Of a DNA stretch of 64,000 bases, positions 4,968 to 8,791 are shown piece after piece; position 1 is the stretch's first letter; each line of letters opens with the position of its first letter. The stretch is from a virus: IMG/VR virus record IMGVR_UViG_3300021087_000857, positions 32,001 to 96,000 of that record; one strand, written 5' to 3'. Both the position numbers and the translations under genes were made by a program. The notes under the pieces are model-generated. The model saw only the letters and a list, made by a program, of their open reading frames with translations, made no database searches and was not told the origin of the DNA.

Positions 4968-5756
4968 ATGAACATAACAATATTTGGTTGCGGTTTCGTT
5001 GGAGGAACCGTAGCAAATTACTTAGAAGAAAAATACGAAGGTGAACGTTACAACATAGTAAAAGTTGATCCGTTGCATTATCCAGATGTCGATCCACAAC
5101 AAGCGGCAATGGAAGCAGATGCAATTATTATATGTGTACCCACTCCAAGTGAATACTTTGGAGAATGTGATGATAGTATAGTTAGACAAGTATTAGAACT
5201 ATGCGATGAACGTACTCCTATATTACTTAAAAGTTCAGTAACACCAGATTTAATTAAAAAGTATCCACCAAATGTAATATACAATCCAGAGTTTTTAAGA
5301 GAAGCACATGCAGAAAGCGACTTTAAAAACCAACATACATTTGTATTAGGACACCACGAGAACAACAAAGAACAAGCAAAAAACTGGGCAGACTTATTTT
5401 GTATACCAGAATGGAATGTAGTTTATACAGACCCATGTACTGCAAGTATGATAAAATACACGCATAACGCCTGGCTAGCCACTAAAGTAGCATGGTTTCA
5501 TGAGCTATATAGTGAATTACCACCAGGTATTGACTATGATACTATAACTAGTGCCTTAGGTAGGTTTCCTACTATTGGTTCGACACATATGCAAGTGCCA
5601 AATGCAGATGGAACCCTAGGATATAGTGGTGCTTGTTTCCCAAAAGACGTAAAAGCCTTGACAAAAGTAGTAAAACATAGTATACTTAACACAGTTAAAG
5701 AAACAAATGATAAACTTAATAACACAAAAGGAGATCAAGATGAAGATGAAGATTAA
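4968..5756 (+). CDS. UDP-glucose/GDP-mannose dehydrogenase family (short phage form)
   Basis: GCGFVGG, ICVPTP, NPEFLRE, KYTHNAWLATKV and GYSGACFPKD. Confidence 0.9.
   Translation: MNITIFGCGFVGGTVANYLEEKYEGERYNIVKVDPLHYPDVDPQQAAMEADAIIICVPTPSEYFGECDDSIVRQVLELCDERTPILLKSSVTPDLIKKYPPNVIYNPEFLREAHAESDFKNQHTFVLGHHENNKEQAKNWADLFCIPEWNVVYTDPCTASMIKYTHNAWLATKVAWFHELYSELPPGIDYDTITSALGRFPTIGSTHMQVPNADGTLGYSGACFPKDVKALTKVVKHSILNTVKETNDKLNNTKGDQDEDED
5658..5686 (+). promoter_or_regulatory. Sigma70-type promoter inside the UDP-Glc dehydrogenase gene
   Basis: TTGACA (5658-5663), 17 nt spacer, TATACT (5681-5686). Confidence 0.6.
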
Positions 5757-6231
5757 AGATATATTAACAGTAGCAATTGCAGGATTTATATTCATGGCAG
5801 TAACAGGTATTGCAAAAGCTGATAGTTATACTGAAGTTGACGGCTATTTAACACATCATTACAAAACAGTAGAAGTACAAACTAAAGTTTCTAACAGAAC
5901 ATGTTCTGAAGTAGATGTTCCAATTTATCAAAACAAAGATGCAAAAACTGGTGAAGTACTAGGTGGTGCTATTATTGGTGGTATCATTGGTAATCAAATT
6001 GGTAAAGGCAAAGGTAACGATGCCGCTACAATCTTAGGTGCAATACTAGGTGCAGATATAGCCAATAAAAAAAGCAGTAACAAAACTATTGTTGGATACA
6101 AAAGATCAACTGTATGTAAAGATAGTCCAACTTATGTAACTGAAACAAAAAACATTTATAGTCACAGTACAATTAGATTTGCAGACGGTAATAGACAATA
6201 CGATATCAAATTTATTGACGAAGACAAGTAA
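5740..6231 (+). CDS. Secreted glycine-zipper 2TM protein
   Basis: Signal peptide plus GAIIGGIIGNQIGKGKGNDAATILGAILG; SD GGAG at 5730-5733. Confidence 0.85.
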   Translation: MKMKIKDILTVAIAGFIFMAVTGIAKADSYTEVDGYLTHHYKTVEVQTKVSNRTCSEVDVPIYQNKDAKTGEVLGGAIIGGIIGNQIGKGKGNDAATILGAILGADIANKKSSNKTIVGYKRSTVCKDSPTYVTETKNIYSHSTIRFADGNRQYDIKFIDEDK

Positions 6232-6238
6232 TCAAACC

Positions 6239-6294
6239 AGAGGACTTTATGCGTCGACCCTCTTTAAATACTCCGCCGTTTAATTTTATAGGAG
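6239..6294 (+). ncRNA. Candidate preQ1-I-like pseudoknot cis-regulatory RNA upstream of queD
   Basis: Stem AGAGG (6239-6243)/CCTCT (6259-6263), 15-nt loop and A-rich tail. Loop GCG can pair with tail CGC. Tail CTCC (6271-6274) is complementary to the SD GGAG (6291-6294). Confidence 0.45.
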
Positions 6295-6300
6295 AATACA

Positions 6301-6747
6301 ATGGCTTATTATAGCACAAAACATTACGGACACAACATTGGACTAAGTGCAGTGTTCCGCCAACCCAATGCAGATCATTCGCATTGCCATTTGCTACACG
6401 GATATAGTTTAGCATTTACATTTACATTTGGTTGTAATGAATTAGACAACAAAAACTGGGCAGTCGACTTTGGAGGACTAAAACCTTTGAAGGCTTGGCT
6501 AGAAGATAGCTTTGATCATAAAGTAGCAGTAGACAAAGCAGATCCACATATGGATACACTAAAAGATCTTGAAGCAAAAGGCTTAGCAGAACTACGTATT
6601 TTTGATGGAGTAGGTGCAGAGAAATTTGCCGAGCATGCTTTTAATTTTGCAGACAAACTTATACGTGAAGCAACTGATAACAGATGCTATTGTGTTAAAG
6701 CCGAGTGTGCAGAGCATGGAGCCAATTCAGCAATCTACGAGGCATAA
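6301..6747 (+). CDS. queD: 6-carboxy-5,6,7,8-tetrahydropterin synthase
   Basis: CHLLHGY, VDFGGLK, FDH and GAEKFAE; adjacent to queE. Confidence 0.9.
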   Translation: MAYYSTKHYGHNIGLSAVFRQPNADHSHCHLLHGYSLAFTFTFGCNELDNKNWAVDFGGLKPLKAWLEDSFDHKVAVDKADPHMDTLKDLEAKGLAELRIFDGVGAEKFAEHAFNFADKLIREATDNRCYCVKAECAEHGANSAIYEA

Positions 6748-7647
6748 ATGGATAAACTTAGATATAGTGAAGCATTCTATTCAGTGCAAGGTGAAGGTAA
6801 ATTTGTAGGAGTACCTAGTGTATTCTTACGTACTTTTGGTTGTAACTTTAGATGCATGAACTTTGGGCTTGATAGGAGTGAACCTAGTAGAGCAGAAAAA
6901 CATGCACAAGGCAATCGTTATAATGATGAGGTATTAGATCTTATCAATAATGATGTACACAAAACAACTAAAGAATTTACAGACTTACCTATTATACACA
7001 CAGGGTGTGATACTTATGCAAGTATCTATCCAGAATTTAAAGAATATAATAAACAAAGAACTATAGACGAAGTAGTAGAACACTTACTAAGTCTTACTCC
7101 TGAAGGTAAATGGACTTGTGATAATGGACAAGATATTCATCTTATACTTACAGGCGGCGAACCGTTGTTAGCGTGGCAACGTTTGTACGTTGATTTATTT
7201 GAACATCCACGTATGAGGGATTTACAAAATGTTACAGTTGAAACAAACACTACGCAACACTTACACAAAGATTTATTCAAATATCTCGACAACAATGACA
7301 GAATTACAGTTACATGGAGTTGTTCGCCAAAGCTCTCCGTTAGTGGAGAATCTTGGGACGATGCTATTAAGCCTAGTGTGGCTAGGGAGTATAGTACTGT
7401 TGATGGTAGCGATATCTATCTTAAATTTGTTGTTGCTGACAGGACTGATATTGACGAGGCTGGTAGAGCTGTTGATGAATATCGTAAAGCGGGTTTGGAC
7501 TGCCCTGTGTACCTTATGCCGTTGGGCGGCAGGTCAGAAGAGTATAATCTCAATGTTCAAGAAGTTGCGAACATCTGTATGGAAAAGGGTTGGAGATTCA
7601 CCCCAAGACTCCACATCAGCCTATTCGGAAACGCATGGGGAACCTAA
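6748..7647 (+). CDS. queE: 7-carboxy-7-deazaguanine synthase (radical SAM)
   Basis: FYSVQGEGKFVGVPSVFLRTFGCNFRC...GCDT, LTGGEPLL, ETN, SPKLS and RLHISLFG. Confidence 0.92.
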   Translation: MDKLRYSEAFYSVQGEGKFVGVPSVFLRTFGCNFRCMNFGLDRSEPSRAEKHAQGNRYNDEVLDLINNDVHKTTKEFTDLPIIHTGCDTYASIYPEFKEYNKQRTIDEVVEHLLSLTPEGKWTCDNGQDIHLILTGGEPLLAWQRLYVDLFEHPRMRDLQNVTVETNTTQHLHKDLFKYLDNNDRITVTWSCSPKLSVSGESWDDAIKPSVAREYSTVDGSDIYLKFVVADRTDIDEAGRAVDEYRKAGLDCPVYLMPLGGRSEEYNLNVQEVANICMEKGWRFTPRLHISLFGNAWGT

Positions 7648-7693
7648 AGACGGTCTAGAAGATCGTATAAGAAAAGCAGGATACTAAAAAATT

Positions 7694-8791
7694 ATGAAGC
7701 AAGGCAATTATATTTTTACAAGCGAAAGTGTAAGTAAAGGACACCCAGATAAGGTGTCAGATCAAATTAGTGATGCACTAGTTGATGCAGGATTAAAAAA
7801 CGGCGACGAGACAACTCGTGTAGCAGTTGAAACACTTGTAACCACTAACCATGTAACGTTAGCGGGTGAGGTAAAGAACTTTAATGTAAGCAAGGACGAA
7901 GTCAAACAAATCGTTCGTGACAAAGTTAAAGAGATTGGATACGAACAGGATGGATTCCATTGGGATAAGTTAAACATCTATAACGAGATTCATTCGCAAT
8001 CAGGTGATATTGGGTTGGGAACAGATAGTTTTGGTGCAGGTGATCAAGGTATTATGTTTGGTTACGCATGTACAGATAACGATGCAATGCTACCAGCACC
8101 TATTCATTACTCGCATGAAATTTTAAAGTCGTTAGACAAAGCAAGAGAAAGTGGATACGAATTTCTACTACCAGATGCTAAGTCACAAGTAAGTGTTCAG
8201 TACGAAGGTGGAAAGCCAACACGTATTGATCAAATTGTTGTATCACATCAACACAAAGACGGATTTCAACATAGCATTAAGGCACCTATAAAAGATGCCG
8301 CTAACGAAGTATTAGGAGATTTAATTGATAAAGAAACTGTATGGCATATTAATCCTACTGGTAATTTTGTTATTGGTGGACCCGATGGAGACACAGGTCT
8401 CACAGGCAGAAAGATCATTGTTGATACTTATGGTGGTTTTGCTCCCCATGGCGGCGGCGCATTTAGTGGCAAGGATCCTACCAAAGTAGATCGCAGTGCG
8501 GCTTATATGGCACGATGGTTAGCAAAGAATGTTGTAGCAGATAACATGGCTGACTGGTGTAGTATTCAACTTAGTTATGCTATTGGTGTTAAAGAACCTA
8601 CTAGTATCTATATAGATTCAAATGGACACAATAGAAGTATTCAGCAATTTATCCAAAACAACATTGACTTAACACCAAAAGGAATCATTGACAAGTTTGG
8701 GTTATTCAAGTATAATAAGTATAGTGAAAATTGTGTTTACGGACACTTTGGCGACAAAGATGTACCGTGGGAAAGTATAGGATGGAAATGA
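7694..8791 (+). CDS. metK: S-adenosylmethionine synthetase
   Basis: FTSESVSKGHPDK, GAGDQG, GGPDGDTGLTGRKIIVDTYGG and GGGAFSGKDPTKVDRS. Confidence 0.98.
   Translation: MKQGNYIFTSESVSKGHPDKVSDQISDALVDAGLKNGDETTRVAVETLVTTNHVTLAGEVKNFNVSKDEVKQIVRDKVKEIGYEQDGFHWDKLNIYNEIHSQSGDIGLGTDSFGAGDQGIMFGYACTDNDAMLPAPIHYSHEILKSLDKARESGYEFLLPDAKSQVSVQYEGGKPTRIDQIVVSHQHKDGFQHSIKAPIKDAANEVLGDLIDKETVWHINPTGNFVIGGPDGDTGLTGRKIIVDTYGGFAPHGGGAFSGKDPTKVDRSAAYMARWLAKNVVADNMADWCSIQLSYAIGVKEPTSIYIDSNGHNRSIQQFIQNNIDLTPKGIIDKFGLFKYNKYSENCVYGHFGDKDVPWESIGWK
8688..8716 (+). promoter_or_regulatory. Consensus sigma70 promoter inside the metK 3' end
   Basis: Perfect TTGACA, 17 nt spacer, TATAAT. Confidence 0.7.

Follow-up and report, generated by a model that had tools for sequence, protein, structure and literature searches.

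A conserved pseudoknot in the leader of a phage queD-like gene is a candidate translational ON riboswitch

We asked whether the 69-nt gap in front of a queD-like gene in the genome of an uncultured jumbo phage encodes a regulatory RNA and, if so, what that RNA might respond to. Riboswitches are rare in phages, and the known ones belong to classes borrowed from bacteria (PMC9004378). The window, by which we mean the whole 64,000-nucleotide stretch of DNA that was analysed, belongs to a 110,270-bp IMG/VR virus record with a CheckV completeness of 32%. The gap lies between the stop codon of the upstream open reading frame (6229-6231) and the ATG at 6301. It contains AGAGG (6239-6243), a loop (6244-6258), CCTCT (6259-6263), the tail TTAAATACTCCGCCG (6264-6278) and AGGAG (6290-6294). 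The initial annotation, made from the letters of the window, had read these parts as a preQ1-I-like riboswitch candidate. Its letters and coordinates all match the sequence as we re-read it, with a gap of 69 nt whose G+C content (0.39, and 0.465 for the aptamer) lies above that of the window (0.346).

The gene behind the gap (6301-6747, plus strand), which would be the regulated one, encodes a QueD-like T-fold enzyme of 148 aa that matches Pfam PF01242 (1.7e-12), phrog_2389 (1.7e-38) and the CPH4 synthase in PDB entry 7v0f (9e-5). The QueD motif is CxxxHGH (PMC10516641); at about residues 28-35 the protein from the window carries CxxxHGY in its place, with a zinc-binding histidine replaced by tyrosine. 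A gene for a QueE-like radical SAM protein (6748-7647, plus strand; phrog_2076 at 2e-50) starts directly after the queD stop codon, and the next gene in the same direction encodes the S-adenosylmethionine synthetase MetK (7694-8791, plus strand; Pfam PF00438/PF02772/PF02773). The PHROGs matches confirm that the element is placed upstream of QueD-like and QueE-like genes, as had been claimed. The promoter nearest to the aptamer is a sigma70-like TTGACA-17-TATACT (5658-5686, plus strand; 11/12) located 5' of a 174-aa glycine-zipper ORF (5707-6231), so the aptamer sits between cistrons in the window. The start of the glycine-zipper ORF is overlapped by 50 nt by the end of a UDP-glucose dehydrogenase-like ORF (4968-5756, 262 aa). 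The N-terminal domain profile of this latter ORF is matched only from position 69, and it looks shortened at its N-terminus.

Comparison with related leaders indicates that positions 6239-6281 (plus strand throughout) almost certainly form a real element, a 43-nt H-type pseudoknot. In helix P1, the 5' strand AGAGG (6239-6243; 86-92% paired among relatives) pairs with the 3' strand CCUCU (6259-6263), which is the P1 that had been proposed earlier and which covariation in relatives bears out. Loop L1 (ACUUUAU, 6244-6250) carries the nearly invariant C6245 and U6246, then U6247, which is mostly U, and a remainder of variable length. Helix P2 joins the 5' strand GCG-U-CG (6251-6256) to the 3' strand CG-C-CGU (6274-6279): 6251-6253 pair with 6277-6279 and 6255-6256 with 6274-6275, and between them U6254 stands opposite C6276 as a conserved mismatch. 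A pairing of loop with tail had thus been foreseen correctly, but in a GCG-CGC register that was off by three nucleotides, as GCG 6251-6253 pairs with CGU 6277-6279. Loop L2 consists of A6257 and the invariant C6258, which adjoins the P1 3' strand. Loop L3 (UUAAAUACUC, 6264-6273) reads UUAAAUA plus CUC in the window; it is A/U-rich at first and then contains the invariant A6270, U6272 and C6273. We discarded a GAC/GTC pairing within the loop, as GGTCTT variants disrupt it. Folded alone, the segment has an MFE z-score of -0.53 and is no more stable than shuffles, so the single sequence by itself proves nothing and the comparative evidence carries the case.

QueD-like proteins that are 75-99% identical to the one in the window are encoded by more than 590 IMG/VR contigs. 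The leaders share one architecture. The 5' strand of P1 (3-7 nt) is followed by N-C-U-U with 0-8 further nucleotides, then by the 5' strand of P2 (3-5 nt) and U-C-R. After N(N)-C comes the 3' strand of P1, and an A/U-rich L3 that closes with A-Y-U-C leads via Y-G-C into the 3' strand of P2. Across relatives P2 measures 6-8 bp including the conserved internal mismatch, which a sub-group with AGACG replaces by a small 2x1 internal loop. When 54 leaders (46 distinct rows) were aligned with MAFFT, pairing reached 89% of cells compared to 67% in shuffles. The covariation score was 0.527 compared to 0.161 in shuffles, none of 500 shuffles reached the observed value, and sliding the partners by 1-3 columns gave scores of 0.04-0.16. 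We avoided fitting the alignment to the claim by using separate covariance models, R1 holding only P2 and R2 only P1, and by scoring P2 on alignments made with R2. Across 83 distinct rows, the paired fraction of P2 was 89.5%, and two-sided changes occurred at six of its seven pairs; one pair occurred as GC (33), CG (21), GU (15), AU (7) and UA (4). Another pair, between the purine that follows the conserved U-C and the pyrimidine that precedes the conserved G-C, was AU in 68 of these rows and GC in 14, with no mispairs. A second QueD sub-clade (41 distinct rows) was 90% paired with a covariation score of 0.474 versus 0.149, and its R-Y pair was GC 19 times and AU 18 times, again with no mispairs. 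The 83-row and 41-row sets together pair in about 90% of cells and show two-sided changes at 10 of 12 pairs. All sets considered, pairing was about 90% compared to 67-69% in shuffles, and scores were 0.47-0.53 compared to 0.15-0.16 for shuffled and 0.03-0.18 for slid controls.

P1 varies in the same compensatory manner, with AU, CG or UA at its middle position and GC, AU or CG at the second; the variants include AGAGG/CCUCU, AGCGG/CCGCU, ACCGG/CCGGU, AGUGG/CCACU, UGCGG/CCGCA, AGUCG/CGACU and AGACG/CGUCU. The initial annotation had suggested covariation in related queD leaders as a test of its proposal, and in that test both helices covary, with shuffled and slid controls far lower. About 30 cells hold G.U, which would be A.C on the opposite strand, and this marks the plus strand as the one that encodes the RNA. 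Relatives with a P1 of 3-4 bp also have a shorter L3 (4-5 nt before YUC), which is expected if L3 spans the P1 groove.

Conservation extends to nucleotides outside the regular pairs. The top pair of P1, G6243-C6259, is kept in 121 of 121 distinct rows. Over the same rows, L1 positions 2-3 (C, U), the C-G pair adjoining the mismatch and the A-x-U-C end of L3 are invariant or near-invariant. The mismatch U is conserved and faces C in 116 rows and U in 3. L2 is 2 or 3 nt long, and its last nucleotide is C in all 121 rows, preceded by A, U or C. These conserved unpaired nucleotides cluster at the P1/P2 junction, where they probably form a pocket for a small ligand. By analogy with the preQ1-I junction, a flat guanine- or pterin-like ligand might pair with C6258 between P1 and P2, and the ligand class is probably of this kind.

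We assessed the specificity of the motif by searching whole records with covariance models. A plain letter pattern would be too weak for this purpose, since the conserved letters amount to only about 21-26 bits once gaps are allowed for and would be expected to match tens of thousands of sites in the public collections by chance. On the 64-kb window, R1 scored 56.8 bits (E 2e-12) at the leader, with the next best site at 10 bits, and the whole 110-kb record has a single R1 site. Among 48 whole viral records (about 4.6 Mb, including four genomes of 222-357 kb that are at least 96% complete), 45 have exactly one R1 site and three have none, and every site found is a QueD leader. In 78 of 128 distinct upstream regions, P1 is preceded by a strong sigma70-like promoter whose end lies at a median distance of 11 nt, so in those relatives the aptamer begins the mRNA. 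The leader element is missing from roughly a tenth of the close QueD relatives. On contig L078, a second identical knot and platform (L078:2125-2166) precedes a 236-aa ORF (L078:2196-2906) that is inserted just 5' of the QueD leader; no other gene besides QueD was seen behind the motif. A DLGAG motif is present in this ORF, whose PHROG match, to a tRNA-methyltransferase, is no more than faint. All occurrences seen were in contigs of uncultured aquatic phages or in a few metagenome bins. Three contigs with the motif are binned into metagenome genomes (Rickettsiales MED657, Crocinitomicaceae), and other binned contigs with the gene have no motif. Positions 5700-7700 gave no blastn match to cultured phages. 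The QueD homologues of cultured phages are all less than 60% identical, and the leaders of BUCT-ZZ01, Pan1, Motura and Phosso do not carry the motif.

We then folded the segment from tail through codon 4 for every distinct leader. In the window, the MFE structure is a hairpin of -7.7 kcal/mol in which an anti-start strand, GCCGUU (6275-6280, plus strand), pairs with the start-codon region AAUGGC (6300-6305, plus strand), which would thereby be sequestered in the predicted OFF fold. The Shine-Dalgarno sequence AGGAG (plus strand) lies in the loop of this hairpin and partly in an inner stem, AUUUU/AGAAU (6283-6297), that pairs two of its bases and may add to the occlusion in the OFF state. The MFE fold pairs AUG with a tail overlapping the P2 3' strand in 64 of 72 distinct leaders, for example as GCCAUAU/AUAUGGC, CCAUUAUU/AAUAAUGG, UGCCAUUG/CAAUGGCA or GUCAUC/GAUGGC. 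In most of the remaining leaders, the tail stretch or the preceding CUCC pairs with the Shine-Dalgarno sequence (CCUAUG/CAUAGG, CUCC/GGAG). The initial annotation had offered a pairing of CTCC (6271-6274, plus strand) with GGAG (6291-6294) as the alternative to the knot. This weaker anti-Shine-Dalgarno pairing is not part of the MFE fold of the window; it is predicted in 5 of the 72 leaders (those with CUCCGC tails), including ones whose second codon cannot pair with the tail, and thus holds for a minority. The main alternative is instead the pairing of the P2 3' strand with the start codon.

The position preceding AUG covaries with its partner (CG 17, AU 15, UA 14, GC 2), and so does the fourth base of the ORF (GC 46, CG 9). 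Shuffling the 14-nt tail reduced the pairing of AUG from 2.6 to 1.3 nt, at a mean loss of 2.9 kcal/mol and a mean z of -1.47. About 6 pairs still form in these controls compared to 8.2 observed, and the sequences are A/U-rich and related to each other, so we rate the evidence for the sequestering helix as moderate. On average, the P2 duplex alone has -5.5 kcal/mol and the sequestering fold -8.4 kcal/mol, so that the knot would prevail only with extra stabilisation. Since the anti-start strand overlaps the P2 3' strand, the knot and the sequestering helix are mutually exclusive, and formation of the knot should therefore turn translation ON.

These data suggest that the element is very likely a cis-regulatory switch acting on translation. 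On statistical and comparative grounds, it has the general attributes of a riboswitch, namely a structured and covarying 5' leader with a conserved junction and a platform strand shared with the aptamer. Our main reading, to which we assign a probability of roughly 0.6, is a translational metabolite riboswitch with ON logic, in which a small molecule would be the trigger and the knot the permissive state. Without ligand, 6275-6280 would pair with 6300-6305 and block initiation of the QueD-like gene. With ligand, 6239-6281 would fold into the H-type knot, with the junction nucleotides forming the pocket. The ligand would stabilise the knot and hold the shared strand in P2, leaving the start codon and the Shine-Dalgarno sequence free for translation. 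QueE would probably be affected through translational coupling, given that its start directly follows the queD stop codon.

The same folds could be operated by something other than a metabolite. A leader pseudoknot in T4 gene 32 and the RegA sites are precedents for protein operators, and the element could likewise be the operator of an RNA-binding protein of phage or host, or a device that responds to co-transcriptional folding, temperature or Mg2+ and keeps the start codon open early in infection. The evidence establishes the knot, its conservation, its competing hairpin and its tie to one gene; a small molecule as the trigger and the direction of control are proposals. These phages have T4-like traits. 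In most relatives the element stands at the extreme 5' end of an early-type transcript, a position that would suit a timing device. Several observations speak against such an operator or device. The helix junction of this 43-nt RNA packs about ten invariant nucleotides that are unpaired or mismatched, the motif keeps strictly to a single metabolic enzyme gene in widely differing genomic surroundings, and no conserved gene for a partner protein accompanies it. Invariants at the junction combined with a tie to a single gene are typical of metabolite aptamers and less so of protein operators, and we regard an operator or ligand-free device as unlikely.

If the element is a metabolite riboswitch as we propose, the gene content of these phages bears on its ligand. 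The record encodes FolE about 10 kb upstream, adjoining a phosphoribosyltransferase, a nucleotide-sugar epimerase and a glycosyltransferase. A 497-aa ORF of this gene run (G000:C1:22393-23886; L205:1894-3387) had no sequence match in Pfam, PHROGs or PDB, and these searches did not confirm a dpdA-like transglycosylase identity for it. Four near-complete genomes of the clade (G025, G030, G031 and G032, behind L075, L095, L102 and L105) all encode FolE and a QueE-like protein, and none of the four encodes QueC or a Pfam-detectable TGT. Phages that have DpdA, FolE, QueD and QueE and no QueC are reported to make 7-deazaguanine-type DNA bases via CDG (PMC10516641). By this precedent and given the absence of QueC, synthesis by the phage's own enzymes would be expected to stop short of preQ0 and preQ1. 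FolE and QueE without QueC and TGT suggest a product of the CDG or 7-deazaguanine type and not preQ0, and the absence of QueC from all four genomes makes preQ1 an unlikely ligand. The earlier caution that the ligand may differ from preQ1 was apt.

The gene directly after QueD, scored at 243 loci, is a phrog_1962-like glycosyltransferase at 118, QueE at 11 and FolE at 5; the arrangement around QueD varies, and the leader is kept by QueD only. Glycosyltransferases that follow and often overlap QueD include L009:3184-3882, L013:3494-4270, L042:3441-4154 and L063:3447-4379, and this proximity hints at a glycosylated pterin or deazapurine product. MetK, QueE and methyltransferases nearby might bring a SAM-type ligand to mind, but we do not favour one, since the motif accompanies QueD rather than any of them.

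Biosynthetic enzymes are less often under ON than under OFF control, which counts against our reading; the known ON switches on biosynthetic genes (PRPP, ZTP, ppGpp) are of the precursor-side kind. ON control of the committing enzyme would fit a precursor-side signal better than an end product, with guanine, a guanine nucleotide and dihydroneopterin triphosphate as candidates. We tentatively propose, as a possibility at rather less than even odds, a new riboswitch class confined to phages, whose signal would be a purine or pterin from the precursor side and not preQ1, and which would switch on QueD, committing the shared GTP/pterin pool to 7-deazaguanine DNA modification. Candidate precursors for such a class would be the guanine freed when a DNA transglycosylase swaps G for 7-deazaguanine, GTP and dihydroneopterin triphosphate.

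Alternatively, the element could be a divergent but true member of preQ1-I that binds preQ1 or preQ0 and whose expression platform has been rewired. The preQ1-I fold is an H-type knot with an A-rich L3 in the P1 groove and a conserved G-C floor, in which UC (type I) or AC (types II and III) stands ahead of the P1 3' strand, its C pairing with preQ1 as the specificity base (PMC11625349). The phage motif shares the H-type topology, a P1 of roughly 5 bp with an invariant G-C on top, UU near the top of the P1 5' strand, a tail that pairs back to the loop, an A/U-rich L3 and the link to a gene of the 7-deazaguanine pathway, here QueD-like. It also shares the invariant C that adjoins the P1 3' strand; the nucleotide ahead of this C is A, U or C across relatives and A in the window (AC, 6257-6258), and the C may likewise read the ligand.

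The differences from preQ1-I concern sequence, helix and wiring. At gathering score, Rfam gave no preQ1-I (RF00522) match on the window, and at E<=10 no preQ1 model matched the 251-nt and 69-nt slices of the window or a 69-nt slice of L009. RF00522, RF01054 and RF02680 also failed to match at the motif in 20 relatives, with E<=10 on 69-nt slices, and the other Rfam matches in the window, its slices and the 20 relatives (PsrR1, AsxR, DdR6) are chance ones away from the motif. The Infernal comparison with Rfam preQ1 models, which the initial annotation had pointed to, thus went against it at every threshold used. P2 of the phage motif measures 6-8 bp, roughly double the 3-4 bp of preQ1-I, and contains an invariant pyrimidine-pyrimidine (U.C) mismatch as well as an invariant C-G. 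L1 is N-C-U-U plus a variable insert, and L3 ends in A-x-U-C and not in A. In preQ1-I, of which types I-III are exemplified by B. subtilis queC, T. tengcongensis, C. antarcticum and E. coli, Shine-Dalgarno bases are buried in a short P2 of 3-4 steps and the ligand turns expression OFF; all preQ1 riboswitches described in that work run in the opposite direction to ON logic (PMC11625349). In the phage leaders the Shine-Dalgarno sequence lies outside the aptamer, at least 11 nt 3' of P2, and the P2 3' strand complements the start codon or the Shine-Dalgarno sequence, so the wiring is ON. The lack of QueC in the four near-complete genomes also counts against this class. What stands of the preQ1-I-like reading is the small H-type knot and the likeness of the P1/P2 junction; the Rfam models, the register and length of P2 and the ON wiring do not agree with it. 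Given these differences and the missing Rfam match, we do not file the element as a preQ1-I member, and we consider true membership quite improbable.

An intrinsic terminator or stabilising hairpin of the upstream gene with no role for queD, as might be read from UUUAAAU after P1 in the window and from the position of P1 8 nt past the upstream stop codon, was rejected as highly improbable, since a terminator scan finds none at the element, most relatives have a promoter and not a gene end before it, and the covarying P2 and conserved loops would be left unexplained.

If the reading as a phage-only class with a precursor-side ligand is true, the element would be the first ON riboswitch of the 7-deazaguanine pathway and the first riboswitch class known solely from viruses. 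It would represent a phage-evolved 43-nt aptamer, in which a fold like that of the smallest known riboswitches is re-tuned to a new ligand and the opposite output. Jumbo phages would use it to match entry into 7-deazaguanine DNA modification, a defence against restriction, to metabolite supply, and synthetic biology would gain a very small ON switch.

The literature that we searched, including two large motif catalogues, yielded no description of the QueD-leader knot. Among known systems, the glutamine riboswitches of marine myophages are copies of a known bacterial class (PMC9004378). The phage element resembles them in that an aquatic T4-like phage would control its own gene by a riboswitch, but it differs in being a motif without a known bacterial counterpart. 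SAM-II/SAM-V, guanidine-III, fluoride, NAD+-II and preQ1-II are H-type pseudoknot riboswitches whose loops line the helix grooves to form the pocket, and all have Rfam models. The QueD-leader knot matches none of these models and conserves different nucleotides, and it shares with them its size class and topology. The add adenine riboswitch of Vibrio vulnificus is a translational ON switch in which the 3' strand of an aptamer helix doubles as the strand that sequesters the Shine-Dalgarno sequence or start codon. Its three-way junction differs from the H-type knot of the phage element, and its ligand and gene class are unrelated. The likeness lies in the expression logic, in which binding of the ligand would free the ribosome site.
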